NCBI RefSeq assembly: GCF_002257565.1
Contig: NZ_CP022736.1
Span: 2,100,284-2,164,283, forward strand
Origin: Herbaspirillum sp. meg3
GTDB taxonomy: Bacteria; Pseudomonadota; Gammaproteobacteria; Burkholderiales; Burkholderiaceae_D
Direction: 5' to 3'
Length of the DNA stretch: 64,000 nt
The notes beneath the pieces were generated by a model. The model was not told the origin of the DNA, made no database searches, and saw only the letters and a program-made list of their open reading frames with translations. This document shows, piece by piece, positions 10,868 to 42,632 of the stretch; the stretch's first letter is position 1; the number at the start of each line of letters is the position of its first letter. A program made the translations under genes and the position numbers.

Positions 10868-10884
10868 TGGAGACGGAGGGATTG
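10868..10884. repeat. partial copy of tRNA-Ser 3' end (att-like direct repeat, distal copy 1)
   Basis: ggagacggagggatt identical to 15 nt of the tRNA-Ser 3' end at 42541-42555 (same orientation). Confidence 0.6.
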
Positions 10885-11044
10885 GCCTACGTTGCGCAGG
10901 CCGCTGAATCGCTTGCAAGCGATTCCCTTCGAATCTTTCACGTAAGCCGCGCAGGCGGCGTACTCATCTCCGGAGACAGGTTTTCTGGGAAAACAAAACG
11001 GGAAGCACAAATAAAAACACCCGCCGAAGCGGGTGTTTGTATTC

Positions 11045-11058
11045 TGGCGGAGACGGAG
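11045..11058. repeat. partial copy of tRNA-Ser 3' end (att-like direct repeat, distal copy 2)
   Basis: tggcggagacggag identical to 14 nt at 42539-42552. Confidence 0.6.
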
Positions 11059-11175
11059 TCGGCCGCAACACTGTTCGCCAAAGACCGCCATTGCGCATGA
11101 AACCTGCGCGGGGACTGGCTCATAGCCGAGTTCATATACGCCAGTGTTCGTCAATAATCTTCTGTATCCGGCGAC

Positions 11176-11198
11176 CGTTTGCTAGTTGGTTTGCTAGC
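11176..11198. repeat. tandem direct repeats GTTTGCTAG(TTG) x2 (candidate integrase arm-type sites, int-proximal end)
   Basis: cgtttgctagttggtttgctagc; near-identical array at other island end (42448-42475). Confidence 0.5.
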
Positions 11199-11247
11199 TA
11201 AAAGGCGGCCCCGATGAAGATTCGCCATGACGATATACTTCTAGGTT

Positions 11248-12534
11248 GTGCGATTTAGTCCTAACCAGGAGCATGAATTGGCAGGCGCAATTAATAAACT
11301 GACAGATACAAAAATAGAAAAGTCCGTAAAAGCAGCAAAACTAGCCTCTAGTCAAAGTAAGGGGAAGGCCTCAATCGTCGGCGATGGCGGAGGTCTATAT
11401 CTTCAGATCAGTAAAACTGGCGCGGCTTCTTGGCTGTTCAGGTATATGCGGGATCGTAAGGCGGTCGGATTGGGTCTCGGCGCATATCCTGACGTATCGC
11501 TCAAGAACGCACGCGTAAAAGCTGACGCGTGCCGCACTCAACTCGCGGAAGACCGAGATCCTTTGACTGAGAAACGAGCTTCTCAGACAGCCGCCAAGGA
11601 ACCTGTCCAAAAAGCGAAGACCTTTGACGAGTGCGCTGCAGAATATATCGCGGATCATCGTGCCGAGTGGAAAAACGCTAAGCATGCCCAGCAATGGGAG
11701 AACACTTTGGCAATGTACGCTTCGCCCGTGATTGGCGATAAAGCCGTGGATGCGATCACTCTGGTCGACATTAAGAAGATCCTAGCGCCGATTTGGACCA
11801 GGAAATATGAAACGGCGAGCCGATTGCGAGGTCGGATCGAGTCAGTTCTTGGCTGGGCCACAGTGCACGAGCTGAGGACTGGCGACAATCCTGCACGGTG
11901 GAAAGGGCATCTAGAGCACCTTTTAGCCAAAAGCTCGCTGACTCTACGCGCGGTCAAACATCACGCCGCGCTGCCCTATGCTGATATTCCAGCGTTCATA
12001 CGTGCGTTGTCCCAGCAGGAAGGGATGGCACGATGGGCGCTTGAATTTCTTATCTTGACGGCGTGCAGGACCAGTGAGATTTGCCAAGCAAAATGGTCCG
12101 AGATAGACCTGAAGAAAGGCCTGTGGACCATCCCGGAAGAGCGCATGAAGGCAGGCAAAGAGCATCGAGTGCCGCTTTCTGATCGGGCCTTAACGGTTTT
12201 GCACTCCGTCAAACCGCTGGCCATTGGAGAATTCATATTCCCTGGCGGCGTGAAGGATAAGCACCTCTCCAACATGGCAATGATGATGTTGCTGCGCCGT
12301 ATGGGCCACGACAAGATCACCGTCCATGGCTTTCGCTCGACGTTCCGCGATTGGATCGGTGAAACGACTCAACACGAGTTCCAAGTTGCCGAGGCGGCAC
12401 TAGCACACGGCCTGGCCGACAAGGTCGTCGCGGCTTATGCACGTGGGGATTTGTATGAAAAACGGTACGCGCTGATGCAGGATTGGAGTAACTATTGTTG
12501 GCCCGCAGAGAAGAGTAAAGCTATCGTTGTCTAA
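11248..12534 (+). CDS. int: tyrosine-type integrase (P4-like, N-terminal arm-binding domain)
   Basis: 428 aa; N-terminal …LTDTKIEK…GDGGGLYLQISKTGAASWLFRY… typical of P4-family integrases; C-terminal catalytic region …HGFRSTFRDW…; true start may be internal/non-ATG. Confidence 0.85.
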   Translation: MRFSPNQEHELAGAINKLTDTKIEKSVKAAKLASSQSKGKASIVGDGGGLYLQISKTGAASWLFRYMRDRKAVGLGLGAYPDVSLKNARVKADACRTQLAEDRDPLTEKRASQTAAKEPVQKAKTFDECAAEYIADHRAEWKNAKHAQQWENTLAMYASPVIGDKAVDAITLVDIKKILAPIWTRKYETASRLRGRIESVLGWATVHELRTGDNPARWKGHLEHLLAKSSLTLRAVKHHAALPYADIPAFIRALSQQEGMARWALEFLILTACRTSEICQAKWSEIDLKKGLWTIPEERMKAGKEHRVPLSDRALTVLHSVKPLAIGEFIFPGGVKDKHLSNMAMMMLLRRMGHDKITVHGFRSTFRDWIGETTQHEFQVAEAALAHGLADKVVAAYARGDLYEKRYALMQDWSNYCWPAEKSKAIVV

Positions 12535-12558
12535 TCTTAAAATTTAAAGACGCAATAT

Positions 12559-13485
12559 ATGAAACGCAACTTAGACCCTATCGGCTCACCAACACTCGAA
12601 AAGCCACACGGAGGATTTCACCCTAAACTTTTACGAGATGTTCTTCCAGCCAGCCGAGTTCCGCCGAGGTCCGCGGGAAACAAAGCACGTTATGGAGCGC
12701 TATCGGATTCGACCTCCTACAGTGAATATGCGTGGGAATTTTTGCGGAGAAATCGCTATTTCCAACAACAGTATGATGCATCGATGGGCGACTCTCGGAT
12801 CATATTGGCCTTGGAGAAATCCATAGCCGACGAAGGAGCCTTTGATTCCGGACTATTTGAAGACGTGCACTATAAAGAACCATACATACATAAAGATAAG
12901 AAAATACAAATAAGATGGGCCTTAGTTGAAAACGTTTTGACGCATTGTCGAGACAGCGAATATAAGGTGCAGAGCACTATTGATGTGCCGATTTTCTATG
13001 CGCATGCATATTTGAGGCGCGCATTTTTTGCTCTGGATCCAGGTTTCGACTTGCCACCAGTAGATATACAAATTGAAATCGTTCGACGCTTTCTTATAGA
13101 AGAAGCCCAAAGTAAAAAATTTATCACGCCCCGAGAGCGGAAGAGAAAAAATCCATCTAGAGCAAAATTACGGAATTTACTTAGGATCATTGATTTATTC
13201 TCTGCTCCAAACAGTGATCTTCGAAAAGTAAGTGAAGCTTTTATCACGCATGACCTCCAATCGATTTTATTCAGATCGCCTAATGCACGTTCTTTGCCTA
13301 CTGAATCAACTGGTTTGGCAGGTGTGCATCAACCATCAAGGACAAAGGCAGAAATAGCGGCAGATCTTCGTGAGGCCGAATTAAAAGTAGCGGAGAAGGC
13401 CATTTCGAGGCTAGCTACGGAAGCTTTTGATCTCGTCTACCGTGGCGGGTACTCAAAACTGATTCACTTCGATTATCAGACTTAG
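12559..13485 (+). CDS. hypothetical protein with YAWEFLRRNRYF motif (DUF6499/DUF2285-like, ICE/island-associated)
   Basis: 308 aa; motif recalled from island-borne regulator-like proteins; otherwise no recognised domain. Confidence 0.5.
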   Translation: MKRNLDPIGSPTLEKPHGGFHPKLLRDVLPASRVPPRSAGNKARYGALSDSTSYSEYAWEFLRRNRYFQQQYDASMGDSRIILALEKSIADEGAFDSGLFEDVHYKEPYIHKDKKIQIRWALVENVLTHCRDSEYKVQSTIDVPIFYAHAYLRRAFFALDPGFDLPPVDIQIEIVRRFLIEEAQSKKFITPRERKRKNPSRAKLRNLLRIIDLFSAPNSDLRKVSEAFITHDLQSILFRSPNARSLPTESTGLAGVHQPSRTKAEIAADLREAELKVAEKAISRLATEAFDLVYRGGYSKLIHFDYQT

Positions 13486-13796
13486 GCTGATGTCGCACTC
13501 CAACACTGCGCAGTGCCGCGGAAACAAAGTTACAAAATGTTACATTTTCTAGGTTTTACTCCAATACCTATTTATTACTTTTTCTATTATGAGGATTTTT
13601 AGATATTTATCTTCATTATGTCAATTGTTGACATTAATTAATGATATTTGAAATAACTGTGTATTTTTTTGAATATTATCCCTGCTATATCCCCAATATA
13701 AGAATATCTATTTTCAGATATTGGTGAATTTCATTTATCTATAGTTCACTCCGATCTCACTTAATTGTTAAGCGAGGAACAACCGGAAGATCCAAA

Positions 13797-14156
13797 ATGA
13801 ACTTAGATACATCCAACGAAAAAGAGCGCAACGACGCGCTCTTCAAGTGTCACAAAACTGCCCTTGCGCAAGTTGGCAAGGGCACACCCCACCAGTATCC
13901 AGTCGCTCTGATTGATGCCACAACCGAACGTTCCTTTAAGTTGATTTCGGTCGACAAGGTCTGCGAACTGCTCGACGTACAGCGAACCTTCGTCAACGAG
14001 CGCGTCGCTTCGGGCGATCTGCCCAAGCCGATCAAGTTTGGTACTAGCCGGCGCGCCGCCATCCGCTTCGTTCTCTCGGAGATCCAAGACTACATCGCTC
14101 GTCTCGCAGCCGAACGTCACACCCCTAATTCGACTAACAACTCGTCGGTCAAATAA
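13797..14156 (+). CDS. AlpA-like helix-turn-helix regulator / excisionase family
   Basis: 119 aa; …VDKVCELLDVQRTFVNERVASGDLPKPIKFGTSRRAAIRFVLSEIQDYI… matches AlpA/phage-regulator pattern; preceded by very AT-rich promoter-like region 13500-13790. Confidence 0.65.
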   Translation: MNLDTSNEKERNDALFKCHKTALAQVGKGTPHQYPVALIDATTERSFKLISVDKVCELLDVQRTFVNERVASGDLPKPIKFGTSRRAAIRFVLSEIQDYIARLAAERHTPNSTNNSSVK

Positions 14157-14167
14157 CGGAGGCGAAA

Positions 14168-14728
14168 ATGACGGACAAAACCAATATCCCTCGCTTGATG
14201 CGCAAGCGCAAAAATGCGCATAAAGCCGTTGCCTATCCCCGCCCAATGTCGACGCAGTTGGCGATTCTGGATTCGTCAGGAAACATACCATTTTCATACG
14301 AAAAAGAAGTTGATGCGGATCCTAATAATTCTCATATCTTCTATGTAGACAGCATGCACTTTTACTTGAGTCCCGCGCCGAACGATCCAGAAAAAGCCAT
14401 GAGAATCGTTATGAATGCACTGGCGACGTTCCATCGCGAACACCCAGAATGGCGTGACCGCTGGCCGGAGAAAGTGGAGCAACCAATTCGTTTTGAATGC
14501 TGGGATGGTTGTCGCAACGGCTCGGTCATATTCAATACTGCGCGCGGCGACAAATTCATATACGCGACACATCTCGGCGGCGATGACGTTGCGCTGATGT
14601 TGCCTAACACTAAGCCCTACTCGTGGCAGAACGCAGGTCTCAGCTGGTTGCGCAACTACGAACGTTGTTGCGACCGCAATGCATGGAATCCACGTCCTTG
14701 GCGTGGCAAACCATGTGGGTGCAACTAA
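14168..14728 (+). CDS. hypothetical protein
   Basis: 186 aa ORF, no recognised motif; Cys-rich C-terminus. Confidence 0.45.
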   Translation: MTDKTNIPRLMRKRKNAHKAVAYPRPMSTQLAILDSSGNIPFSYEKEVDADPNNSHIFYVDSMHFYLSPAPNDPEKAMRIVMNALATFHREHPEWRDRWPEKVEQPIRFECWDGCRNGSVIFNTARGDKFIYATHLGGDDVALMLPNTKPYSWQNAGLSWLRNYERCCDRNAWNPRPWRGKPCGCN

Positions 14729-14803
14729 GAGTCAATTTCAGTTATTCGGGCCAGTGCGGCATGAGCTGCACTGGCATCGCCAATACACTCATCTTTTACA
14801 ACC

Positions 14804-16036
14804 ATGATAGACCTCCTCATCGTCTCCGGATGCCTCGGCACACACCAAGACCACCATCTCAAGCGTATTACGCAAATTAGCTTTGCGCGATTTAACGACT
14901 ACTTTTCCAAGCCCACAATCACTTTCATTAACCTCCCCATTACTGGTGCACAGGTCGAGGTGAAATGCTGGGTCGAGTTGGTAGCAGACATCCCACGCAC
15001 ATTCGTCCAGATCAGTATTCCACTCCCCGCCGTCACCATCGGTCAGAACTATGCCCATGCAGGCTTGGAGGTGCTTAAGAACGAGCTGGATTGCGCATCT
15101 CTCATCGTCAAGCTGACGTTGCTCACGTTAGGTTTCAACGAGGCCGAGATCGCGCTGTTTATGGAATCTTCCAGTCCTAAGATGGTTGAACTTACCTGGA
15201 ACACGCCAACGAGCAGTGAAGATGCACTGAAGAACCTGCAACAACGAACGTTTCACGCGTTGGAGCTAGTCAAAAAAGCTAGCCGTCGCCATGATTCTCA
15301 GATCCGCGACCTAGACTATCGTAAAAAGAACTTCGCGCCGGCGGTGCTGGCGTCGCTCAAGAATGGCGACCAGTTCCGTCAGTACGGCAAGTTCGATCAA
15401 ATCGCTGCTAAGTCGAATCGCGGCAAGACGCGTTATAAGGTATCTGCCGAAATGGCTAGACAAAAGGATCAGTTACTGGATGCCATTCGCTTTCACGCTC
15501 GCAACGAAGTCCGGCTAGGTTTCGAAACGCTCAAATCCCTGGGTATGGCGCATCCTAAAAACTGGACAGCGGAAGGCTTGAAAACAGGTATTGACGGTGT
15601 CTGGCATCACTTGGGCTTTGCCGTGAAACCGCGGCTGGACCGTTCGCAGCTGAGCCCCGAAGCGTTGACCTCACTGGATCAGTTTGACGTAGGCGTGGAC
15701 CTGGTGGCGGCTTTACCAGCGCACACATTTTCCCGCCATCGCAAGAGCATCCTGGCTGCCAATGGTCCGGATATCGCAATTCCCTGGCGCCATGGTCAGG
15801 TCAATCCTGAGTCAGTGGGCTATCAGCTGCAATACGAGCGCCGCTGGAAGCCGACCAAGTTTCAGAAGTTGGTAATCTCCGCTGCGACCGCCCCGGCAAT
15901 CGAGACGGACCTGCAGCGTGGTATCGCGTTCATCCGCGACGGGGAGCTGCCGGATATTGCTGATTCCGACGAGCTAGAACGCTGGATGACCCGCTGGAAA
16001 GCTTTTATGGCGAAGGAGCGCCTGCTGATGGGTTAG
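14804..16036 (+). CDS. hypothetical protein (possible island replication/maintenance function)
   Basis: 410 aa ORF following alpA-like gene as in P4-like islands; no confident domain call. Confidence 0.45.
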   Translation: MIDLLIVSGCLGTHQDHHLKRITQISFARFNDYFSKPTITFINLPITGAQVEVKCWVELVADIPRTFVQISIPLPAVTIGQNYAHAGLEVLKNELDCASLIVKLTLLTLGFNEAEIALFMESSSPKMVELTWNTPTSSEDALKNLQQRTFHALELVKKASRRHDSQIRDLDYRKKNFAPAVLASLKNGDQFRQYGKFDQIAAKSNRGKTRYKVSAEMARQKDQLLDAIRFHARNEVRLGFETLKSLGMAHPKNWTAEGLKTGIDGVWHHLGFAVKPRLDRSQLSPEALTSLDQFDVGVDLVAALPAHTFSRHRKSILAANGPDIAIPWRHGQVNPESVGYQLQYERRWKPTKFQKLVISAATAPAIETDLQRGIAFIRDGELPDIADSDELERWMTRWKAFMAKERLLMG

Positions 16037-16184
16037 ATTACTCGTCAATGGCAGGTAATAATGGTTGGGGCAAAGGAGGGGAGATGGCTTTCCGTACGGG
16101 GCAACTACGCAGGACTGTAGCGTGCTCCATCGGCCCCTTTTGCTAAGATGCTATTTTCTACCCACAATTGACGGAGTTAAATCC

Positions 16185-16451
16185 ATGAGTTATGTGGTTT
16201 CACTAAAAGAGGTCGACGCGCACTGGGGCTTCACCGACCGATTCTCGGAAGAGGATCGCGATGCTCTGCTCTCAGCCACAATAGGGGATGAATTTAAGAT
16301 CAATGGCGGCTCCGCAAAATTAGATCAACGCGGAAACATGAATCTGTTTTTTGATTCGAACGCCGGACGCCGTCACCATGAGGTGGATTACGAGGAACTC
16401 CGTCAACAATTGCTTAACCCTGATACGGTTAAGCTCTACACCAGCTACTAA
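16185..16451 (+). CDS. hypothetical small protein
   Basis: 88 aa from ATG 16185 with GGAG 9 nt upstream. Confidence 0.4.
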   Translation: MSYVVSLKEVDAHWGFTDRFSEEDRDALLSATIGDEFKINGGSAKLDQRGNMNLFFDSNAGRRHHEVDYEELRQQLLNPDTVKLYTSY

Positions 16452-16544
16452 GGACGGGGCATACAATGAGCACCCAACGATCGGTGCCTGTACTAGCCGA
16501 GCATCGCGGCAAGCGTCGCAATTTAGCCTCGGCGATCAACTTGT

Positions 16545-17573
16545 CTAAGTTGGAAAGTTGTCACGAAACTCAGGTGGGCAATCGGGACTAGTCCAACTAT
16601 GCTTTTCCTCCGGATCAGGATGAAGTGCTTCCCACGAGTCAGCAGATGGCTCGCTAGCCTCAAACCATAGGGCTCGTGTTTCTTTGCTGCGAGCCACGAC
16701 GGTGGTTGGGGCAAAGGCGACGTGCCGGTGATTTACGGTATCCACCCAGTCTGAGGAAACATCCGAGTAGAGCGGGCCGATGGGGCGATGCGTGAAGAGG
16801 AGGCACTGCTCTGGGGAAATCGGCAGCGTGATTTCAATGTCAGGATTTTTCAGACCGACGGCACGTTCGAACGGATGCCGACGATAGGCAGTGGGATCAC
16901 ACCATGTCGCTGGAGCATCGGTGGTGAGGAATCCAAGAGGATCACATGCGCAAAGCACGGTCTTATGCATACCAAGCAACGTTGGAAGGATCACATCGAC
17001 CGCTTGATCGAGCAGAGTTGTAGTCGTCGTTTCCTTCAGATTGTCGAAGTCTCCTGGTTGAGGAGTGTAGGTGTTCGGCCGGTTAGCGTGAGGATGAAGT
17101 ATTGGTTCTACAGTTCTGCTTTCCCAGTCGGGGCCTGCGGCCTTCTCATACATCGCTTTCAACTCCTCCATGTGACCGAGGAAGTGATTGCGGCTTGCGG
17201 CGGTACGGGTATATGCCGTCGCAGCAAACAAGCATGCCCAAAACCAGTCCTCTTCAGTAAGGGCGCGTTTGAAGTTGAACTTGCTCGTTCTGACCTTCGT
17301 AAAGTTCGACTCTATGGTTCCTAGACCATGCTCAAGCCGGAGGTCATGAGTGCCATCGGGAGCCGTCAGCGTGTACATATCTGATTCACGAAAGATCTTC
17401 TCGGGCGCCTTGGCCTTTGGGTTTTCACCCTTCTTATCAAACAGCCAAACGTAAGGAGTGTTCTTGCTGGTCTTCGGCGCCGAAGGATCCAGCCAAGCTT
17501 TCAGATAGCATGCTGGGACGAAATGCTGCCTTCGCTGTTCATATTTCTTTCGCTTCATAATCTTGGGGCCCAA
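16545..17573 (-). CDS. DUF4238-like protein
   Basis: 342 aa; N-terminal …RRQHFVPACYLKAW… resembles the HxVPqfYLrxF signature of DUF4238. Confidence 0.5.
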   Translation of the reverse strand: MGPKIMKRKKYEQRRQHFVPACYLKAWLDPSAPKTSKNTPYVWLFDKKGENPKAKAPEKIFRESDMYTLTAPDGTHDLRLEHGLGTIESNFTKVRTSKFNFKRALTEEDWFWACLFAATAYTRTAASRNHFLGHMEELKAMYEKAAGPDWESRTVEPILHPHANRPNTYTPQPGDFDNLKETTTTTLLDQAVDVILPTLLGMHKTVLCACDPLGFLTTDAPATWCDPTAYRRHPFERAVGLKNPDIEITLPISPEQCLLFTHRPIGPLYSDVSSDWVDTVNHRHVAFAPTTVVARSKETRALWFEASEPSADSWEALHPDPEEKHSWTSPDCPPEFRDNFPT

Positions 17574-18562
17574 AGAAAGTTGTTCTTGCGGAGATGTGTA
17601 CTACGCTACGTCAAGAGGCTGCTTCCCGTGGACTGTTTCTGGCCGGATGCAGGTCATAGAGAACTCCAACCCATCTGACAGCTAGTGTGAGATAAGGTCT
17701 GAACTGCTGACTCTTTGTGAAAGGGGTTATCAACTACATAGTTAGCATCGCCAATACAATCGTTTTTAACAACCACTAAACCGCAGATCCCACTCGCCGA
17801 TAGCACTTCAACACTCCGCAGGTCATCCTGCAGCACTTTTCACCTCTAAACCACCACCGGATTTTATAGTCATTTTCCGCTCGGATCTTGCGACTACAGC
17901 CGAGTATCACTTGGATCACACCCGCCACACTAGGCTGCGAGACGATCCGGTAGATACCCACTGAACCGGCACCAGTCTAACCGTCACACTTCCCACGTAG
18001 ACAACGCACAGTGCAGCCCTGCAAGCAGTTAGACCGGTTTAAGTATGAGTACCCACACCGAGATACCCCTAGCTCGACGTAGAGCCGGCCAGAGACCCCG
18101 ACAAGCCATGAACGCCGCAGAACCGGTGAAGGTCCATACGCAATTTCAAGCGATGGTAAACATCACGGAGAAACCGGACATGGGCAAACTCATCGCTGCA
18201 ATACTCAGGTTGTTTAAACCTGCACCACCGCCAGCCTCTCCTGAGCCGCTGGAACTGTCAGCCGAAGCCAGCGGATTCTACGATGCCTTTGCTAGGCGCT
18301 TAGTAGAGGTCACGCCGCCAGAAGTGCTTGCGCAACCCGGCACGCTGATTCTCAACGAGACGATTGCTGCGGTTCTGGACGAGTTGGTACGCTCGGAGAA
18401 GCACCATGCCAGGGCAGTACGGTACCGGTCGTGCTGGACTCCCGTTTAAGCGCGCCTAGCGCACATGAGGCAGGTCGGTGTTGCTCGACTAGTGCAAATG
18501 GCTAGGACTGCCAGCGTGGCCTGCTGGTAGCCCATGCGTTCCGGAATGTTTCGATGCAAACG

Positions 18563-22995: not shown

Positions 22996-23115
22996 TTTAA
23001 ATTACCGATTGGCGACTGCTCGATTCTAATACTACCCTTGGCAACAACGAGGCGGAAGCGATGGAGAATGTCTAATATCGGCCAGAAACCGTTCAACGGC
23101 CAGTGAAAATACGCC

Positions 23116-23210
23116 ATTGCTGACTATCGATAATGGTGCGTTTTCGATAGTTGACAATGACTTGCGTGAATTGCGATTTGATACCATTTGATGTCCGCAT
23201 CGGCCAAGAA
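23116..23210. repeat. imperfect direct repeat, copy A (shares ~33-bp block with internal 7-bp inverted repeat and ~22-bp block with copy B)
   Basis: ctgacTatcgataatggTgcGttttcgatagTtgaca … tttgaTGtccgcAtcggcCaaga versus copy B at 29766-29870. Confidence 0.7.
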
Positions 23211-29608: not shown

Positions 29609-29765
29609 TCTGGACTTCAATTTAGAGGAGAGAAGTTTATAGACTTCCTTCCGCTTGATCTCGTTCTAGGGATATACACATAGCAACAATTATCAAGAGC
29701 AAACTCTTCGTCCGCAATTGGAAGAAGCAGTCGTTGAACAACTCAGCGAAAAATCCACCCAAGCT

Positions 29766-29870
29766 GACCATCGATAATGGCGCATTTTCGATAGCTGACA
29801 GTAAATGAGTGGAGTGAACCCAGAGGCGGATTACAGTTCGGAATTATTTGACATCCGCAATCGGCGAGAT
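29766..29870. repeat. imperfect direct repeat, copy B
   Basis: ctgacCatcgataatggCgcAttttcgatagCtgaca … tttgaCAtccgcaAtcggcGaga; spacing between blocks 15 nt longer than copy A. Confidence 0.7.
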
Positions 29871-29995: not shown

Positions 29996-30367
29996 TTAAA
30001 CATCGTTTGATCTAGCAGCCTTCATCAAACATTTAGACATTTTGGCTAAATGAGACTGCGCCGCCTTTGTCAGATTGACCTGCTTTCGCCTTCCATCCTC
30101 AGTATCACCTAGCGCAATCCATCCTTTAGCGATTAACGATTTCAGGCGCTGATGAATCGTCACTGATGAGCCAAGCGTGCTTGCAGATGTAATGTCAGTG
30201 ACGGACACTCGTGCTTCCGCACGCAAGGTACGTGCGATATGGTCGAAGATTTTCTGTTCTAATGGATCAAGAGCGGGGAGGTCTTGAATCGTTTCTATTA
30301 GTTCAAGAAACCGAAGGTAAATATCCATGCCTTTTTTTATCTTTGTAGAGCTCATAGTAAATCTCAT
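29996..30367 (-). CDS. small winged-helix transcriptional regulator (MarR/PadR-like)
   Basis: 123 aa; …VTDITSASTLGSSVTIHQRLKSLIAKGWIAL… HTH-like. Confidence 0.45.
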   Translation of the reverse strand: MRFTMSSTKIKKGMDIYLRFLELIETIQDLPALDPLEQKIFDHIARTLRAEARVSVTDITSASTLGSSVTIHQRLKSLIAKGWIALGDTEDGRRKQVNLTKAAQSHLAKMSKCLMKAARSNDV

Positions 30368-33424: not shown

Positions 33425-35506
33425 ATGGGAAACGCTTGTAATTCGTGCGGAGCGGAAATCGTCTTTGAAGCTGGAAAGCAATCGCTAGTCTGCGAATTTT
33501 GTGGCGCAGTCAACCGAGTTGAACGACCAGAAGACGCGTTAGCGACTTCGTTTGACCGCATAGTTCCCATTGCCGTCACTCCTCAAGAAGTCGATTACAA
33601 GCTCTATACCTATATGAGCACGGGTAACTTCACGCCTGACGACATGATCGAGGCATCAACTATCACGTTACGAGAACACTATTACGTTCCCGCGTTCGCA
33701 TTCAGGGTGGACTACGAAGCTACATGGACCGCATCGTTTGGTTTCGACAGGCAGGAACCATACACCGCCTATCGTAGCGTTACTCGTAATAACCGTACCC
33801 ACCAGGAAGCGTACACCGCTTATAAAACGGTCACGGATTGGCGTCCGGCAAACGGCATTGAGGCCGGCATATTTGATGTCGCAGGTTATGCAGGGAACCG
33901 TTTGAACGGTTCCTCCCTCGCGCCTGCAAATTTGGTCGTTGATGCAGTCATGCATGGCAGTTCTACCGAATATAACGCCTCTTTCACCACCGGCTTTGAG
34001 GTCGAAGAATTTTCGGCATCAGAAAAAAAGGTTTTTGATTCGTTGGATAGCGAAATCAATGCCGGGATCGATCAGCGCGTGAAGCATCACGCGCAAGGGG
34101 ACAAGCAACGGGACTGGCACTGGAATGCGCGAATGAGTCACGCCACCACGACATATGCCGTGCCAATTTCTCATGTGACATTTCAATATGGCGAAAAGGA
34201 ATACAACATCTGGATTGGTGGGCACAACGTGGATGCTATTCGAGCAGATGACTTACCTGTCGACCATGATAAAAAGAAGGCTGCCAACATTGGCTTTGCT
34301 CCCGCTGCCTTTGGACTGATCTCTACGGCCGGAACGGCATATGTCTGGGGCTTTGCGGGAACGAGTTTGATAGCCACTGCCATTGCTCTAGGCTATGGAT
34401 TCATGCGACGCAAGGCGCTGATTGACTACTCCAAGTCAATCCGTAGTTCGTTGTTGACGCAAATGCAAGCTTCAAATCAAGTAGTTGCTGGACTGAGCGA
34501 TGAGGAACAACTTAAGGTCACCAAAGCATTTCAACGACCAGAGCGCCCATTATTTGCCAGTATTCATAAGGATAAAATTGTCTTACCTGCACTCGCTGCT
34601 TTCGCTTTTTTTGGAGCTATTGTGCCCAATGTGGTCCTTAGTCCTGCGGCGATTGAACAGCGTGCCATTGCGCGCCAAAATTCGGAACGAGCTGAGCAAT
34701 ATCGGTTAGCCGCTCTGGCACGTACTGCGCAAGAGGAGGCTGAGCGCAAGGCAGACGACGACGAGCGAGCGGCCAGAAAAGCAAGAATTGAGGCTGTTGC
34801 GGCTCAAAAGGCCGAGGCTGAGGCCGCTGGACAAAATGGCACGGAAGTCGCTGCGACACAGGCGACACCTGTTCAGGAAAATGCGTCAGTCCAGAACACC
34901 GTGCCTGTTGCGTTACCTGTCGCTGCGGCTGACAGCCGGGTACCTATCAACGTAGCTGGGAGATTCACCATACTTGCTCCGGACGAGTCGAAGCAATTGC
35001 TTACCGCCATGCTTCAACAAGCAGCCAGTACTTTTAAGATCGCTCAACTCAAAGGTCAAATAGAAGCACTTCCAAAGCCAATGACCGGTGATCGAAAAGC
35101 AGCCCGAAAGCTGAACGACCAAGGTCTTGCAGCATTGAAATCTGGTGACTACGCGCAAGCGGTTCTTGCGCTGAAAAATGCTACGTCTACCGACTCTGCG
35201 GACGTCGAAGTATTAAATAACTACGTATACGCTTTGATCAAAGCGCAGCGCATGCGCGAAGCGGAGTCCGAGGCTGGACGTTTGTTGACCTTCAGTCCGG
35301 GACGTGCGTCGGCGTGGGCAAATCTTGCAGAGATCTATGCACAAACAGAGAAAAAGGAAGAAGCTGTAGCCGCTTTGGTTCTGGCGTTCCAATTTTCCTC
35401 GAACAAGGATCGTACTATTACTTTTTTGAATGAGCGAGCAGGTGATCCGAGTTCGCCACTGCAGCTGGTCGCAAAGAAGGCAATAGAAGTAATCGAAAAA
35501 TTGTAA
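33425..35506 (+). CDS. zinc-ribbon / TM / coiled-coil / TPR multidomain protein
   Basis: Starts MGNACNSCGAEIVFEAGKQSLVCEFCGAVN (zinc ribbon); central hydrophobic segment (…FAPAAFGLISTAGTAYVWGFAGTSLIATAIALGYGF…); Ala/Glu/Arg-rich coiled coil; C-terminal TPR-like repeats; AGGGGA RBS. Confidence 0.6.
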   Translation: MGNACNSCGAEIVFEAGKQSLVCEFCGAVNRVERPEDALATSFDRIVPIAVTPQEVDYKLYTYMSTGNFTPDDMIEASTITLREHYYVPAFAFRVDYEATWTASFGFDRQEPYTAYRSVTRNNRTHQEAYTAYKTVTDWRPANGIEAGIFDVAGYAGNRLNGSSLAPANLVVDAVMHGSSTEYNASFTTGFEVEEFSASEKKVFDSLDSEINAGIDQRVKHHAQGDKQRDWHWNARMSHATTTYAVPISHVTFQYGEKEYNIWIGGHNVDAIRADDLPVDHDKKKAANIGFAPAAFGLISTAGTAYVWGFAGTSLIATAIALGYGFMRRKALIDYSKSIRSSLLTQMQASNQVVAGLSDEEQLKVTKAFQRPERPLFASIHKDKIVLPALAAFAFFGAIVPNVVLSPAAIEQRAIARQNSERAEQYRLAALARTAQEEAERKADDDERAARKARIEAVAAQKAEAEAAGQNGTEVAATQATPVQENASVQNTVPVALPVAAADSRVPINVAGRFTILAPDESKQLLTAMLQQAASTFKIAQLKGQIEALPKPMTGDRKAARKLNDQGLAALKSGDYAQAVLALKNATSTDSADVEVLNNYVYALIKAQRMREAESEAGRLLTFSPGRASAWANLAEIYAQTEKKEEAVAALVLAFQFSSNKDRTITFLNERAGDPSSPLQLVAKKAIEVIEKL

Positions 35507-36262: not shown

Positions 36263-36380
36263 AGTTCATCTAACCCCAGAAAAACTAAACCTATTGCAGG
36301 ATCAAATAAATCGTTATCCGAAATATTAAAAATCCAGATGGCAACTAAAGAAGCTGCTACTGATTTTTAGCATCACTGTT

Positions 36381-36412
36381 ACTAGCCAATTGATGAGGAT
36401 GAATTGGCTAGT
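36381..36412. repeat. perfect 11-bp inverted repeat (hairpin) immediately 3' of recombinase gene
   Basis: actagccaatt-gatgaggatg-aattggctagt. Confidence 0.7.
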
Positions 36413-36428
36413 TCAGACAAAAACTTCA

Positions 36429-37397
36429 CTAAAGTAGACTTGGAATCTTCCGTTTCGCTACAGGCCTGATATACCGTGCCAGTGTCACGTCCGACTTGTG
36501 CCCAGTCTGCTCACGAATTTGATAGGGCTGTAAGCCTACGATCGCGGCCTCGGTACAGTATCCAGCACGCAAACTATGGCCGGAGACGCATTTGGCGGCG
36601 TCCGCACCACTCATTCTACGAACAGCGGACTTCACGATCAGGGCTACTGATTGGCCTGTCAGCGCTTTGTCACCAACTGCCTGGTCGTGACGGTTAAGAG
36701 GGCGAAACAGCGGTCCCGCCGCAATGCCAGCAAGTTCCATCCACACTTTGAGGGCCTTGACCGGGCAGCGGCTGCCCTTGGCATGCGGGATGAACACGAC
36801 TCTGCCCGCTCCTTCCTGGTCCGTCTTGGATCTCCGGATCAGCAGTTCGATGCCGTTCTCAAAGTAGGTCATATCCTCCACCTTCAGTGCCACTAGCTCA
36901 GACCTCCGGAACGCACCCGCAAACCCAATCAAGATCAAGGCCTTATCACGTGCAGCACGCATTGGTTTCTGCTTGTCCACCAGCACCATCAGTTCCAACA
37001 AGTCATCTTTGACGAGAGCCTTGACTCGGCGCTGTACGGTGCCAAAGGTGCGTCTGATACCCTGCATGGTGCGCTTCACCAATCGATCCATCACTGGCGA
37101 AGGAAGCTGATCGTCTGTATGGGCGCGATGAATGGCGATCAGTCTGTGCTGGAGGGTTGCCACCGCCGTCGTGCCTGCACATTCCGCCAGGTAATCTGCG
37201 ATCATCTCGGGCGTAGCCGGTATGGTGCCGCCATGGCTTTTGAAATGACTCAAATCCGCTTCATAGCTGCGCTTAGTGGCTCGCGACTGCGCCGCTGCCG
37301 CATATGTACTTGCGCTCGCCGAAACCGTAGGTGAATCAGTCTCTGCATGCTCTGGTGCTATGGGACGGCCGGAACCTGCTTGTTTGCTCGCGCTCAT
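36429..37397 (-). CDS. tyrosine recombinase / integrase (XerD-like, second copy in island)
   Basis: Start at ATG 37395-37397; N-terminal SAM-like …TKRSYEADLSHFKSH…; C-terminal …GHSLRAGYCTEAA…TLARYIRP… (R-H-R-Y catalytic pattern). Confidence 0.8.
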   Translation of the reverse strand: MSASKQAGSGRPIAPEHAETDSPTVSASASTYAAAAQSRATKRSYEADLSHFKSHGGTIPATPEMIADYLAECAGTTAVATLQHRLIAIHRAHTDDQLPSPVMDRLVKRTMQGIRRTFGTVQRRVKALVKDDLLELMVLVDKQKPMRAARDKALILIGFAGAFRRSELVALKVEDMTYFENGIELLIRRSKTDQEGAGRVVFIPHAKGSRCPVKALKVWMELAGIAAGPLFRPLNRHDQAVGDKALTGQSVALIVKSAVRRMSGADAAKCVSGHSLRAGYCTEAAIVGLQPYQIREQTGHKSDVTLARYIRPVAKRKIPSLL

Positions 37398-37399
37398 GA

Positions 37400-37744
37400 T
37401 CAATACTCGCCGGTCAGAAGCATGGTGGTGACAGATCGATCTGCCTCGGTGATGATGTAGATGCGGTCCTTGCCGATTTCGTAGGCCGATAGGATGCGCA
37501 TTTCGTGCTGGATCGAGAGCCTGTTCTGTTCGATGTCCTCGGCGCACAAGGTGCCATAGTCACCATGCTGATGACGGGAGAAGTAAGGCGTGGCGTTGAC
37601 GCCGTTGTGATCCAGCAGGTCGAGAGCGGCAGGTGTAGCGCAAACTAACCCGAGGGGAAATAGCGGCTCCTTCGACAGCTTCGTCAAGGAGTGCACTACG
37701 GCGGCATTGTTGGTTTCTGTTTTGTTATTCATGGAAGACCTCAA
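37400..37744 (-). CDS. hypothetical protein, translationally coupled to recombinase
   Basis: 114 aa; stop 2 bp upstream of recombinase start. Confidence 0.5.
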   Translation of the reverse strand: MRSSMNNKTETNNAAVVHSLTKLSKEPLFPLGLVCATPAALDLLDHNGVNATPYFSRHQHGDYGTLCAEDIEQNRLSIQHEMRILSAYEIGKDRIYIITEADRSVTTMLLTGEY

Positions 37745-38222
37745 AGATTAATTTCAGGTCGAACGCGTCCGCACTCCACAGCAGGGCAGCTGTAGAGCGA
37801 TGAGATACCTGTTCGACGATGGGGAATGGAAAATGACAATCCAAACGCCTGCCAAATTCACGGCAGAATGTCTGGATCAATTGGAACAAACGGGAAACTT
37901 ATGGCAGGTACGACGGCGCGTTGCACGCCGCATTTAGCGGTCCCAAGTAGGGACAGATGGAAACAACGGATCCTTCGGGAACTGTTGCACTGTTGCACGC
38001 GCTATGCACACGCAACACTGCAACACGATCAGGGAGATAAGCAGGAGCGGCGGCTACAACCGGGCTGCGGCGAACATCACCGCTACGTATGCAAAACGCC
38101 ACCAACACGCACCGCGCAAGATCTACCCCACTCCGCCTCACCGACAAGCCCACACACCAGCACAGGTATAGTCCAGTACCGCTAGTAGACCCGCCAGCTA
38201 GACACTACTCAACTTGCACGGT

Positions 38223-39248
38223 TTAGCCTGGATTCACTCCGAACTGCTTTTCCAGAATGGTTTTCACGTCTTCCTTGCTTTGTGTACGCCACTTGGGTGC
38301 ACCACCGGCAGATATGCCGTGTTTCATGCAACCGCCATCACGTAGAGCGCCAAACTCTTTACCGGACATCACACGACCGTCCACCATCTTTGCAGTGCCA
38401 GTATCCAGATTGACTGTACCGATAGCGCAGTCCTTCCAGGTCTGAGCACCACCAATCCAAGCTAGGTTGCCCTTGGTATCAAAGCCGTGATAGGCACCGT
38501 CGTACTCGATTTCTTCTACGTCCGCACCGTCGTTCTTCAAGGCCTGGTAGTTGTTGCGGCAGCCCTCAATCGAGTTCATGTCGTCCTTGGTTCCGGTGAT
38601 GATACGAATGGGAGCGCCAGTGGTTTTGGCATGGATTGAACAGACCGGATAGAAGAGAATGTGGATAGCAAACTTGAGATCGTCGTCAATCACACCCTGA
38701 CGTATTTTCTCAAAGCTGGCCATCAAGCCCGCATGACCTCCCTTGCTGAAACCAATCAGACCGATACGATTACGGTCAATGTTGGGATCGGTTGCGAGCA
38801 GTTGCAGGGCACGTAACGCATCCACAGCAGAAGCACCGTAGGCCAACAGCTTCTGGTTCTCCGCTGTCCGCTGAATGCCTCGGGTCGCAAAGCTGTCCAC
38901 CATCAAAGTTGCGTACCCCAGGCTATTCAGGTACTTGCACCAGTCGACAATGTCCTGCGTCACGCCACCACTGGAGTGCATCACCACCATCGCAGGAACC
39001 TTGGTACCCGGTTTCATGTTCTCAGGGAAGCGTAACTCGCTCTTGATTACATCACTCAACACCACCCGCTTCTGGTAGATCCTTTCGGCGTTAGTGTCGT
39101 GACGGGCTGACACAAAGTAGATGGTGCCGACGTCTGTTGCGCTGAGACTGGTCTTGGCCTCGTTCTGTTGCGCTTGGGCTGGAATCGCTACCGCTGCCAA
39201 CAAGACGGCAAACAGCGCAGCCCCAGCACGTTTGAGAGCTGTAGTCAT
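38223..39248 (-). CDS. dienelactone-hydrolase-family / alpha-beta hydrolase, secreted
   Basis: 341 aa; signal peptide …AVLLAAVAIPAQAQQ; nucleophile elbow GFSKGG. Confidence 0.7.
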   Translation of the reverse strand: MTTALKRAGAALFAVLLAAVAIPAQAQQNEAKTSLSATDVGTIYFVSARHDTNAERIYQKRVVLSDVIKSELRFPENMKPGTKVPAMVVMHSSGGVTQDIVDWCKYLNSLGYATLMVDSFATRGIQRTAENQKLLAYGASAVDALRALQLLATDPNIDRNRIGLIGFSKGGHAGLMASFEKIRQGVIDDDLKFAIHILFYPVCSIHAKTTGAPIRIITGTKDDMNSIEGCRNNYQALKNDGADVEEIEYDGAYHGFDTKGNLAWIGGAQTWKDCAIGTVNLDTGTAKMVDGRVMSGKEFGALRDGGCMKHGISAGGAPKWRTQSKEDVKTILEKQFGVNPG

Positions 39249-39312
39249 GTGGATCCTTTTGTTGTTTTGGTTCGAGCCGTCGACCGGTCTAGAGCGATCA
39301 ACGGCGGTCTCA

Positions 39313-39804
39313 CTACCTCAACCCGAACTTGCGCAATGCATCGGTTTTCAAAAGCTTGGATACGCAAGTGATGTCGCATATCTGCGGCGCCGTGTTCTTC
39401 TTCGTTTTGGGGTCAACCACTTGATAGTACATGCCATCGCCGCAGGCACTTCCCGCGCAGCTTGATCCCACCACGATACGGAACTCACGACCTACCGGCA
39501 CGCAGATAACAGTGTTGTTGTCGGAAACGGGGAGCTTGGTCGCAGCTCCTTGTCCCAGGATGTAGATTCCTGCGCCTTCGGAACCGTCCACTGTGAACGT
39601 TGGGGATGTCTTGCCAAAGCTCTGTTGGTTGATGCCGACCACGTGGACAGGTGCACCGCCGCACGCCCCGAACACCGTCAAAGTTTGAACAACGGGGGCG
39701 ACACCGTCTCCCACCGGATCCAAGAGTACTGGCCAAGCTTGCGCGGTGATCACGGCAGCAGATAAAGCCATGGTGAGAATTGCTTTGTAGATTGTCTTTT
39801 TCAT
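39313..39804 (-). CDS. secreted hypothetical protein
   Basis: 163 aa; signal peptide MKKTIYKAILTMALSAAVITAQA. Confidence 0.5.
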   Translation of the reverse strand: MKKTIYKAILTMALSAAVITAQAWPVLLDPVGDGVAPVVQTLTVFGACGGAPVHVVGINQQSFGKTSPTFTVDGSEGAGIYILGQGAATKLPVSDNNTVICVPVGREFRIVVGSSCAGSACGDGMYYQVVDPKTKKNTAPQICDITCVSKLLKTDALRKFGLR

Positions 39805-39842
39805 TTTTGATTTCTTATGTGTGAGAGAACAAACAGGGAGGG

Positions 39843-40322
39843 TTAGCTAGGCATGACCGAGGTGGGAGTCCAATTGTGGATCAATCGCCAGCCGTTCTCG
39901 GTCTTCGTGAAGATGGCGAATCCGCCGATTGCGAACTTCTGGCTCAGCGTCTGCCCGTCTTTCGAATACATATGGACGATGTAGGCATGGCACGGCTTGA
40001 ACTCAGGCCTGAAACCATTGTTTTTGTACATGGCGCTGGTTTCGTCGGACGAGGCTTTCAAAGTCAGCTCGGCGGAGATATCCAGTCGATAGTTGTTGCC
40101 CTCCGCAGCGCCATCGGTCTTTTTGATGTTCGCCACTGTCCATAGCGGGCAGCTTCCCACCTCGTTCTGAACGTAAGGCTCAATGTCATCCGGGCCTGGG
40201 GTGCTGCTGCAGCCTGCAATAGTTAAAACGATCCCCACTGCGGCAAAGAGGCGCCAGTAAGACCTACCCTTTTGGATAAATCGTGGATTGCCTGTTGCTT
40301 GAATTTCCAAATTCGACATCAA
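39843..40322 (-). CDS. lipoprotein, hypothetical
   Basis: 159 aa; lipobox …LTIAGCSST. Confidence 0.5.
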   Translation of the reverse strand: MMSNLEIQATGNPRFIQKGRSYWRLFAAVGIVLTIAGCSSTPGPDDIEPYVQNEVGSCPLWTVANIKKTDGAAEGNNYRLDISAELTLKASSDETSAMYKNNGFRPEFKPCHAYIVHMYSKDGQTLSQKFAIGGFAIFTKTENGWRLIHNWTPTSVMPS

Positions 40323-40419
40323 AGCTCCTTTTTAATTGTGGACAAATACAAACTTAAAGTGTGTATTTTCATAATATCAACAAACTCAAAGTGTGTGGTA
40401 GCGGACATACAAAAACAGG

Positions 40420-40680
40420 ATGCTTCGTCCTGTGCCAAAGAATCCCATTCAAACGATCGATCCCCAGTTACTGTTCGCGACCAACATGCGACGGGTGCGC
40501 CTGTCAAAGCAGCTGACGCAAGAAAAAGTAGCCGAATATGCCGAGCTCCACGTGAACTACATTAGCTCCGTGGAACGCGGCGAACGCAACATATCCATCC
40601 AAAACGTCTACAAAATAGCGTTGGCACTTGGCTCCTCCATGCCTGAACTGCTGAGCAGCGAGACGGACGAAGCCTCCTAA
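40420..40680 (+). CDS. XRE-family helix-turn-helix regulator
   Basis: …LSKQLTQEKVAEYAELHVNYISSVERGERNISIQNVYKIALAL… (HTH_XRE pattern); start may be internal ATG. Confidence 0.65.
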   Translation: MLRPVPKNPIQTIDPQLLFATNMRRVRLSKQLTQEKVAEYAELHVNYISSVERGERNISIQNVYKIALALGSSMPELLSSETDEAS

Positions 40681-40688
40681 GAAGCAAG

Positions 40689-41447
40689 TTAAGCCAATCG
40701 CACCGGATAGCAAATTGCTCTCAACCTCACCGCCAAATGTGGGTGTTGGTTTGCCTTAAGCCTCCAAGCGCGTTGACGGATCCTCGCGGTTGCCGCAGCA
40801 CTTGGACTACCGCCTCGGCGTCCTGCCAACCAAAGCTTCTCCCGAATAAACGCATCGTTATCAGACCAGTGCCGCCCATCGGCATGGATTGGATATCGCG
40901 CCTGGTCATGCAGCCAACCGAAGGCATACTCAGGACCATGAATAACGACTTCGTGGATCGTATGCATCCAGGCTGCTGGCGCTACCTGCAACGCGCCGTC
41001 GAGATCCTCTCGGTATGTCACCAGCACGGATTCGCAACCGGCAAAACACAGCTCAAACCTCTGACGCGATAAGAAGCAGTACGACACGAGCTCGGCATCA
41101 AGTAGGCGAGCCAATGCTGGATAACTCATTTCCAGCGGGGCTGCCTGTATCACTGCCCAACCTGATAGCCGGCGGGCCATGCCCAACTCCGTCAGCAGGC
41201 CTTTGTGCCATGCCAACTGCTCCAAGTCGCAGCGAATCGGCAGGCAGCTCTTTGACGGAGCCTGTTTGGGTATCCGCTTCGGATTGCCGAATTGGTAGCG
41301 CAGCGGTGAACGGAAGAACAGCGCCACATCTTCAAATTCGAATGCAATAGCGCCGAACAGGGGTAGCTTTGGTACCGGCCCCGGTTCAAGCCAGGGCTCA
41401 AACACGGAAATGGCTGTTACCCGCTTTCCAAGAAAAGGATTGATCAT
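40689..41447 (-). CDS. hypothetical protein
   Basis: ~252 aa from internal Met (MINPFLGK…); GC-rich, no recognised domain. Confidence 0.45.
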   Translation of the reverse strand: MINPFLGKRVTAISVFEPWLEPGPVPKLPLFGAIAFEFEDVALFFRSPLRYQFGNPKRIPKQAPSKSCLPIRCDLEQLAWHKGLLTELGMARRLSGWAVIQAAPLEMSYPALARLLDAELVSYCFLSRQRFELCFAGCESVLVTYREDLDGALQVAPAAWMHTIHEVVIHGPEYAFGWLHDQARYPIHADGRHWSDNDAFIREKLWLAGRRGGSPSAAATARIRQRAWRLKANQHPHLAVRLRAICYPVRLA

Positions 41448-41503
41448 TTGTGCGTCCTTTCTGGACGGCACCGCACGGAAGCTCTCCCGTACGGCACCGG
41501 ATC

Positions 41504-42013
41504 TTATTTAGCGGCGGTTGGCTTCGCCATTGGATGCACGCCGATGTACCAGGCCGGCCCGATGTTCTTGAAATCGTTGCGCACATGAAGATCGGTGCTG
41601 ATCCATGACGCCGGATCAATGATGTATTCCTTCACCGCCTTCATATTGCTGCTGTCGCGAATGAAGACTGCATGCCGGCCCAGTTCGGATTCCTCGTTGT
41701 AGTCGACGATAACAATCGCCACTGCCGGGATATCTACGATGCCTTTGGTGATCTGCTTGTAGACGGAACCAACCAAGCTGAACTTGGCCAGCAGCGTAGC
41801 TATTTCCTCTTCGACAAGTGGCCAAAAGGGACCGTGGCGGGGATGCTTCAAATCGCTGATAGCGATGCTCATGACCTCTTCAAGCGACTTCCCGGCGATC
41901 ATTGCAACGCAAGCGAAGATGCAGTCATGCGTTCCGGTCTGCTGGACTCGATTGAAGACCGGCTGGATGTCCTGCGCAGTGTTGGCGGTTGTAGTGGAGT
42001 TTGCTGCTGCCAT
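41504..42013 (-). CDS. peptidase C39-like domain protein (stand-alone)
   Basis: …QQTGTHDCIFACVAMIAGKSLEEV… resembles the Cys-box (…CGxACLAMI…) of C39 bacteriocin-processing peptidases. Confidence 0.45.
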   Translation of the reverse strand: MAAANSTTTANTAQDIQPVFNRVQQTGTHDCIFACVAMIAGKSLEEVMSIAISDLKHPRHGPFWPLVEEEIATLLAKFSLVGSVYKQITKGIVDIPAVAIVIVDYNEESELGRHAVFIRDSSNMKAVKEYIIDPASWISTDLHVRNDFKNIGPAWYIGVHPMAKPTAAK

Positions 42014-42415
42014 ATCGGCTCCTTAAAGATTGCGGATAAAAGGTGCGCAGCAGTACCCCTGACGAGGAATCGTCGGAATAACAGAACTAGAGAAGGAAAA
42101 TCACGGAATCAATGGGAAACCGGGAAATCCGGCTGATTGACTCAATGGGGCGCTGCTGCGCATTGAATCAAGCTGCGAGTGCTAAGCGATTGGCGAAGTT
42201 TCGACAGCTTGAAACTACAGTTTACCGGGCATCGACCAACGGATCGAGGAGCAAATAACTTTGTCCCCAGCGAGTAAAGGGTGTGCGCGAACAGCTGAAA
42301 TAAGAGGAAAGAATAGTTGGGGTCGTACGGAGGGAGGAAAGCGGAGGGCACTCTTATCAACGCAAATGCGAAGGAGTGTTGGTGCTTGATGTGGGGAGGG
42401 AAGTTGCTGCCACAA

Positions 42416-42475
42416 GCTATCAAACGGTTGTTCGCCAATCGGAACTACGTTTGATAGTTGCTTTGATAGTTTGCT
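42416..42475. repeat. TTTGATAG repeats (one inverted + two tandem direct; candidate integrase arm-type sites, tRNA-proximal end)
   Basis: gctatcaaacg …(22 nt)… acgtttgatagttgctttgatagtttgc; compare 11176-11198. Confidence 0.5.
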
Positions 42476-42538
42476 TAAGTTATTATTTGAAAATTTATTA
42501 AAATTTTCTTCTGAATCAACAACTTAGAGCATTCATCT

Positions 42539-42632
42539 TGGCGGAGACGGAGGGATTCGAACCCTCGATACAGGTTTAAGCCCATATGCTTCCTTAGCAG
42601 GGAAGTGCCTTCGACCACTCGGCCACGTCTCC
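42539..42632 (-). tRNA. tRNA-Ser (anticodon GCU)
   Basis: 94-nt cloverleaf on minus strand: 7-bp acceptor GGAGACG/CGTCTCC, anticodon loop CTGCTAA, long variable arm, T-arm GGTTCGAATCC, encoded CCA; close to E. coli tRNA-Ser(GCU). Confidence 0.9.

Follow-up and report, generated by a model that had tools for sequence, protein, structure and literature searches.

In a phage collection, the integrase closest to that of the element studied here, an integrative island of Herbaspirillum sp. meg3 located in a tRNA-Ser(GCU) gene, is the one of Ralstonia phage RSY1 (49.7% identity over 89% of the length). The island and its attachment (att) sites were analysed in a 64-kb stretch of contig NZ_CP022736.1 (positions 2,100,284 to 2,164,283), hereafter the window, to which all coordinates refer unless stated. 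Integration of phiRSY1 has been proven by PCR and its 15-nt core in tRNA-Ser(GGA) has been defined, in a study that makes no mention of arm repeats (PMC5694545). Like phiRSY1 and phiRSX, the island has a homologous integrase and a core made of the 3' end of a tRNA-Ser gene (14 nt here, ~15 nt there). Moreover, the RSY1 genome, which is in the attP form, successively displays the pair AATTGTGGGTAG/CCTTGCGGGTAA, ~60 bp, the core GGGCGGC-CCCTCTC-TCCGCCA, ~120 bp, the pair AATTGTGGGTAG/AAACGTGGGTAT and the ATG of int, i.e. one pair with a 12-bp period on each side of the core, at distances similar to those found in the window. The two flanks of the core are designated below as the P arm and, on the int side, the P' arm. 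In phiRSY1, int starts right at the P' pair and has an excisionase gene as its neighbour. However, phiRSY1 is a complete P2-like phage, whereas Pfam scans recognised no virion genes in the element of the window. Furthermore, phiRSY1 targets tRNA-Ser(GGA), its core is reversed relative to int, which brings int next to the tRNA, and TTGTGGGTAG takes the place of TTTGMTAGTTG (M being A or C) as arm motif.

KplE1 (CPS-53) of E. coli, with IntS and the small winged-helix directionality factor TorI, also relies on a P4-related heterobivalent integrase acting at a tRNA gene (PMC2951348). Its int promoter region overlaps the att arm with the arm-type sites, with negative autoregulation of int as the expected outcome; the element integrates at argW and its arm motif contains TAAA (PMC2951348). 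The geometry of the window would fit such an overlap, since int is oriented outward from the core and its start is preceded by the P' pair at 78-101 nt. However, the arm and TorI sites of KplE1 were mapped experimentally (PMC2951348), whereas those of the window are predicted and the promoter overlap is a weak consensus match. P4 and CP4-57-type integrases (the window integrase is ~31% identical to a CP4-57-type IntA of the phage collection) have in common with the system studied here the three-domain architecture, integration into tRNA or tmRNA 3' ends, a short direct repeat and an AlpA-type helper. P4 differs by its satellite replication and capsid-hijack module, whereas the cargo in the window consists of defence and other accessory genes. 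Lambda attP resembles the one predicted here by its inverted half-sites around a 7-bp overlap, direct-repeat arm sites on both arms, a length of ~250-280 bp and, possibly, a bending-protein site between arm and core, which in the window is a consensus match. However, the integrase and arm-binding domain of lambda belong to other families (Arm-DNA-bind_3 here), the target in the window is a tRNA gene, and the lambda arm sites P1, P2 and P'1-P'3 are replaced by 2+2 sites with a strict 12-bp period plus one possible inverted site.

A precise insertion into the 3' end of tRNA-Ser(GCU)

The only tRNA gene that ARAGORN detects in the window encodes tRNA-Ser(GCU) and occupies 42539-42632 of the minus strand, in agreement with an earlier note made on this DNA from its sequence. 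This gene is intact, as also seen in its alignment to L001, an island-free related Herbaspirillum, and its last 14 nt are one copy of a direct repeat, TGGCGGAGACGGAG: the copy at 11045-11058, already reported in the note, is identical to 42539-42552 and has the same orientation. The aspartokinase encoded next to the tRNA gene is identical, as a protein, in two other assemblies.

The earlier note had proposed an island in the 3' end of this tRNA gene and had suggested aligning it with an empty locus; this alignment reveals an exact empty site in L001. There, the tRNA gene is directly followed by its terminator and by the oligopeptide ABC-transporter genes found to the left of the island in the window. 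In the blastn comparison, L001 1-11510 matches 54056-42539 of the window, whose positions 11058-1326 are matched by L001 11497-21254; the 14-nt core, no more and no less, is common to both alignments, which stop at 42539 and at 11058, respectively. Since they meet with a 14-nt overlap, the window consists of the backbone plus 31,494 bp, i.e. a 31,480-bp island body (11059-42538) and one duplicated core. The G+C content is ~0.44-0.55 inside the island versus ~0.56-0.60 in the flanks. These data show that region 11045-42552 is an integrative island precisely inserted into the 3' end of tRNA-Ser(GCU) and, since an island-free relative exists, that the insertion is evolutionarily recent. A composite or tandem island was considered and rejected: the interior (11059-42538) contains neither a third copy of the 14-nt core, even with up to two mismatches, nor an internal tandem arm pair.

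The island has pushed the tRNA gene's own terminator away. This minus-strand hairpin (11015-11038), which is backbone sequence since the same hairpin lies 3' of the tRNA in island-free L001 and L002, is now 31.5 kb from the tRNA. The segment that has taken its place (42470-42538) is AT-rich and lacks a terminator-like site. Most related islands carry a G+C-rich terminator hairpin between the P-arm repeats and the core, which would serve as terminator for the rebuilt tRNA transcript.

A scan of species-representative genomes retrieved 80 loci with a homologous integrase, the closest integrase being 71% identical. Alignment of 45 distinct int-proximal junctions gives the family core consensus TGGCGGA-N7-TCCGCCA, in which N7 matches each host tRNA; at positions 15-21, the consensus base is found in 37 (T), 45 (C), 36 (C), 35 (G), 37 (C), 37 (C) and 27 (A) junctions. 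The core of the window reads TGGCGGA-GACGGAG-TCGGCCG. Its first half-site, TGGCGGA, is the opposite-strand reading of the tRNA's acceptor stem and CCA end. The predicted 7-bp overlap GACGGAG comes next at both junctions, the tRNA-proximal one (attL here; 42539-42552, plus strand) and the int-proximal one (attR here; 11045-11058, plus strand), the extent of the latter being given by the overlap of the L001 alignments. The element-side half-site C' (TCGGCCG; 11059-11065, plus strand) is the counterpart of TCCGCCA, the inverted repeat of TGGCGGA. Judging from these sequences, the core follows the classical plan in which a 7-bp overlap separates two inverted half-sites, with predicted cleavage positions that make GACGGAG the probable site of strand exchange. 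Exactly 14 nt are duplicated because one half-site is common to the tRNA and the element and is extended by the 7-bp overlap. Since the half-sites are palindromic, only the overlap is asymmetric and gives the insertion its direction; int would come to lie next to the tRNA or far from it depending on how the overlap is oriented with respect to the arms.

Among the homologous loci in which a tRNA gene is near enough, the likely target is tRNA-Ser (anticodons gct, cga, gga and tga), and two layouts are found: either the tRNA is immediately upstream of int, or int is tRNA-distal, the tRNA being on the opposite strand, 4-10 kb off. The second one is that of the window, where the earlier note had correctly placed int at the tRNA-distal end, and is common to 13 relatives for which both ends are available; their direct repeat is the last 14 nt of the tRNA (15 nt in two of them). 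These 13 related islands are the ones used to compare both arms; L004-L006, L163 and L164 are not among them. L163 and L164 (integrase copies at least 90% identical) carry a different tRNA-Ser core, TGGCGGAGAGGGTG, whose 7-bp overlap matches a different tRNA-Ser. When they are compared with the window (11059-11150), the int leader and the repeats upstream of int are near-identical but the 90 bp beside the core are only ~65% identical. This difference suggests, at the sequence level, retargeting by exchange of the core-proximal segment.

Tandem repeats on the two arms of the element

Both ends of the island carry tandem repeats, cgtttgCtagttggtttgCtagc at 11176-11198 and acgtttgAtagttgctttgAtagtttgc at 42447-42474; the earlier note gave the former exactly and the latter one base off (42448-42475). 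The candidate arm sites delimited here are a P' pair (GTTTGCTAGTTG + GTTTGCTAGCTA; 11177-11200, plus strand), which lies at +119/+131 relative to the core and precedes the int start by 78-101 nt, and a P pair (GTTTGATAGTTG + CTTTGATAGTTT; 42449-42472, plus strand), located at -90/-78. The inverted 11-nt copy CGTTTGATAGC (cgtttgatagc) pointed out in the note is found on the minus strand at 42416-42426. This copy may be a fifth arm site, but it also overlaps a match to the IHF consensus and can form a hairpin with the first unit of the P arm; it is not general among related islands. The IHF consensus has seven matches in the window versus 1.9 expected. Two are in the P arm, at 42418-42430 and 42514-42526, and the latter (AATCAACAACTTA, plus strand), between the P pair and the core, is a candidate bending site. 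The same consensus scan gave no match in the P' arm.

Since the units are short (9-12 nt) and an extra copy of GTTTGATAG is found at 34365, within coding sequence, the resemblance of the two ends might be viewed as a chance or compositional match without function, an outcome that the earlier note had itself kept in view. However, GTTTGMTAG has five matches in the window versus 0.69 expected, a count reached in none of 100 shuffles. TTGMTAG-N5-TTGMTAG has exactly two matches in the 64 kb versus 0.00 expected, one inside each island end, and again none of 100 shuffles equals this. Furthermore, the P and P' pairs are identical at 19 of 23 positions, a score that none of 486 control windows matches, and the same architecture recurs in dozens of independent elements with different motifs. 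The chance reading is effectively refuted.

Tandem pairs with a 12-bp period are located just upstream of int in 54 of the 80 loci, where the distance between the first base of the core hexamer and that of the pair is 126-167 bp (mostly 129-146), versus 132 bp in the window. In 10 of the 13 related islands, as in the window, the element-specific P' pair recurs on the P arm, with a best match above all ~470 control windows; this P pair is at -74 to -80 in eight of the ten islands and at -56 and -66 in the other two. The two units of the pair in related islands are located at about -78/-66. A repeated motif distinct from the core is present on both flanking arms in the window (-90/-78 and +119/+131), in these relatives and in RSY1 attP.

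The sequence of the motif varies with the lineage. TTGATAG(T/C)T is common to the closest relatives of the window (L004, L005, L006, L083-L088, L139, L163 and L164). Exact GTTTGNTAG is absent upstream of the closest integrase homologues, this strict pattern having missed the related TTGATAG pairs that were later seen by inspection. The P' pair is nearly identical in L163 and L164 despite their different tRNA-Ser core. Since the A and C variants, GTTTGATAG and GTTTGCTAG, lie side by side in one arm of these loci, the A/C position is tolerated. An L027-type relative carries a motif of the GTGTGGGAAC type, and other lineages have TGGGGGATCA, TGGTGACTCA, GTGTGGGAACAA, AATGGCATACA, AGTGGTACCCTA and others.

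The int gene (11278-12534, plus strand) encodes a P4-type tyrosine integrase of 418 aa. Its TTG start at 11278, preceded by AGGAG at 11267-11271, agrees with the identical record ASU38523.1. The protein contains the domains PF13356 Arm-DNA-bind_3 (5.3e-21), PF22022 Phage_int_M (3.3e-30) and PF00589 Phage_integrase (1.7e-15), and the catalytic Arg, His-x-x-Arg and Tyr can be read by eye in the translation in LTACRTSE, VHGFRSTFRDW and VAAYARGD. In partial Mantel tests, motif similarity correlates with identity of the N-terminal domain when the catalytic domain is held constant (r=0.55, p<=0.0005) and not with identity of the catalytic domain when the N-terminal domain is held constant (r=0.04, p=0.25). 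For instance, L003 has the closest catalytic domain (0.79), yet a diverged N-terminal domain (0.61) and a different motif; L004, with an N-terminal domain identity of 0.65, has TTTGATAGTT in common with the window. Hence, the arm motif tracks the N-terminal arm-binding domain of the integrase and not its catalytic domain.

In one metagenome contig (L088, Ga0302305_1003730), a pair of the TTTGATAG type is contiguously followed, within positions 1-270, by a terminator hairpin, the core TGGCGGAGACGAAG, another pair and int. This attP-like junction could result from tandem elements or from an excised circle. A terminal overlap indicative of circularity was looked for in L088 and was not found.

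Proposed recombination mechanism and its alternatives

These data make it likely that the island was inserted by its own P4-type integrase and that the tandem GTTTG(A/C)TAGTTG units are the arm-type sites of this enzyme. The earlier note had already read them as attL and attR arm-type sites, which is now supported by their conserved position, the recurrence on the P arm, the co-variation with the N-terminal domain, the shared TTGATAG and RSY1 attP. We infer that the integrase binds the repeats, that the AlpA-like protein and IHF may have the roles proposed below and that the island may still be mobile.

According to this model, the units would be read by the Arm-DNA-bind_3 domain of the integrase. 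In the excised circle, two P units (-90 and -78) and two P' units (+119 and +131) would flank the core in an attP of ~280 bp. With two arm sites per arm, there is one for each of the four protomers of a recombinase tetramer. An integrase tetramer would bridge these sites with the core half-sites present in attP and in the tRNA gene, the element supplying the second, inverted half-site (TCGGCCG). Strand exchange would take place within GACGGAG. After integration, the P arm would lie beside the tRNA and the P' arm and int at the far end, the orientation of the overlap in this lineage putting int in the tRNA-distal position. Excision would need an AlpA-like helix-turn-helix protein encoded at 13797-14156 on the plus strand (a candidate excisionase, or recombination directionality factor, with a weak HTH_17 match and resemblance to AlpA-type open reading frames, ORFs) and probably a host bending protein at the IHF-like site. 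By binding the P' pair, the integrase could in addition control int, in the way described for KplE1 (PMC2951348).

Several observations weigh against this reading. The tandem-pair filter fails in 26 of the 80 homologous loci, the P pair of the window, at -90, is one 12-bp period farther from the core than in most relatives, and its C' half-site agrees with the family consensus at 5 of 7 positions. The promoter scan upstream of int gave one weak match (9/12; 11131-11158), just upstream of the P' pair; since this site is weak and is not conserved in L163 and L164, autoregulation of int is speculative. Moreover, the repeats, the N-terminal coding region and alpA are neighbours in the circle, so that co-inheritance could account for part of the co-variation. 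Lastly, the motif also correlates with AlpA identity when the N-terminal domain is held constant (partial r=0.25, p=0.003).

This last correlation is what would be expected if the tandem repeats were the sites of the AlpA-like excisionase, or of another regulator encoded by the element, and not those of the N-terminal domain of the integrase. AlpA-type ORFs are indeed found 3' of int in 46 of the 80 loci, and winged-helix directionality factors such as TorI of KplE1 bind closely spaced direct repeats in att arms (PMC2951348). However, the N-terminal domain predicts the motif better (partial r=0.54, p=0.0005, with AlpA held constant), and the number of sites, 2+2, is consistent with a tetrameric protein that has an arm-binding domain recognised by Pfam. 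Moreover, the pairs are present on both arms, whereas the sites of directionality factors, as known for lambda Xis, usually lie on one arm. For instance, the TorI sites are on attL (PMC2951348). We therefore regard an assignment of the repeats to AlpA or to another regulator as rather unlikely.

The repeats on the int side could also be mainly operators of the int promoter, the copies at the far end being relics and the island a fixed, immobile remnant. The P' pair is located just downstream of the promoter-like site, and autoregulation through arm sites is documented for a tRNA-associated integrase, IntS of KplE1 (PMC2951348). However, 10 of 13 independent islands have the P-arm pair at a conserved position, as does the attP of a functional phage, the direct repeats of the island are perfect and its int frame is intact with the full domain set. 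Furthermore, an island-free relative exists, hence the insertion is recent. Since regulatory and recombination roles are compatible, a role of the P' pair at the int promoter would not conflict with its being an arm site, and an operator-only function in an immobile remnant appears highly improbable.

Older scar, cargo and the wider integrase family

A 15-nt fragment of a tRNA-Ser 3' end, GGAGACGGAGGGATT, lies outside the island, in the backbone, at 10869-10883 (plus strand) and lacks the GCCA end. The earlier note had seen it, one base off (10870-10884), and had proposed two successive integrations or a decayed older element. Both L001 and L002, which are island-free, also have this fragment, ~160 bp past the tRNA. 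It therefore predates the island and is a backbone scar unrelated to this element, which fits the older element and not a recent double integration. In L002, the copy (11676-11694 of that sequence) reads GAATCCCTTCGTCTCCGCC; since it extends deeper into the tRNA than the 14 nt of the family, the scar probably originates from a different type of integrase. The homology between L002 and the window ends exactly at 10869-10883 and, since collinearity stops there, the fragment looks like the boundary of another variable region. Beyond it, the dpp-like operon is replaced in L002 by LysR, MesX, methionine-synthase-like and ABC-transporter genes. An Rfam search of the left end, which also covered the 160 bp separating the two tRNA fragments, gave no hit near any gathering score.

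The cargo of the island encodes Old nuclease, Mrr-like, CHAT, DUF4238, SPFH/zinc-ribbon, TPR and dienelactone-hydrolase-like proteins and a second tyrosine recombinase. Pfam scans of 30 island ORFs revealed no capsid, tail or terminase family; the element is therefore an island and not a prophage. Run on ten cargo proteins, PADLOC matched Old (1.6e-195) and, weakly, the Mrr-like protein (PDC-M36A), and gave no other matches. In segment 19378-22995, which looks like a small defence cluster, an overlapping UDG-superfamily ORF is followed by the Old-family nuclease and then by the Mrr-like endonuclease. In segment 31286-35506, for which PADLOC gave no match, the gene of an SPFH/band-7 protein with several C-terminal zinc ribbons precedes a 230-aa ORF that matches no family and the gene of a TPR protein of 709 aa. 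The second tyrosine recombinase (36429-37547, minus strand) has a catalytic domain only, without arm domain; NCBIfam searches on ten backbone ORFs gave only sub-threshold Xer-like matches, for this recombinase. It has no core copy or arm pair of its own inside the island and is treated as cargo.

A 51-nt direct repeat with the palindrome TATCGATA and, in addition, the string TTTTCGATAGTTGACA is present in two intergenic copies (82% identical; 23106-23156 and 29750-29800). Between them lies a 6.6-kb segment of low GC that includes the CHAT-domain gene, and a small LexA/HTH-like ORF (29996-30367, minus strand) is nearby. This repeat may be a shared operator or a module boundary.

The biology described here is that of the established heterobivalent integrases of the lambda/P4 paradigm and goes conceptually no further; the att sites are, however, unusually well resolved. 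The model is sharper than that of the earlier note, since it distinguishes a 7-bp half-site and a 7-bp overlap and sets the older scar apart. It provides base-level boundaries and an attP/attB model for an island carrying defence genes in Herbaspirillum. The predicted attP (~42400-42538, the 14-nt core and 11059-11277), together with int, is a possible integration vector for Herbaspirillum and relatives.

Beyond this strain, the repeats are a conserved and co-evolving feature of a large tRNA-Ser-specific integrase family that includes a working phage. Its lineages pair a diverged Arm-DNA-bind_3 domain with their own 10-12-nt arm motif (TTTGATAGTT, GTGGGGGAAC, GTATGGGCTG, AATGGCATAC, GTGGTACCCT and others), and these many integrase/motif pairs offer material for studying how Arm-DNA-bind_3 reads DNA. 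We tentatively raise the idea, which we find somewhat doubtful, that the family is a natural library of orthogonal recombination modules, whose members all have an almost identical palindromic core and a common geometry (2+2 sites, a 12-bp period, ~-78 and +120 to +130). If arm recognition alone prevents cross-reaction between co-resident elements, the present alignments would allow a recognition code to be read for Arm-DNA-bind_3 and would provide ready-made orthogonal integrases, and flipping the 7-bp overlap in the palindromic core would act as a switch for the end of the element that faces the tRNA.

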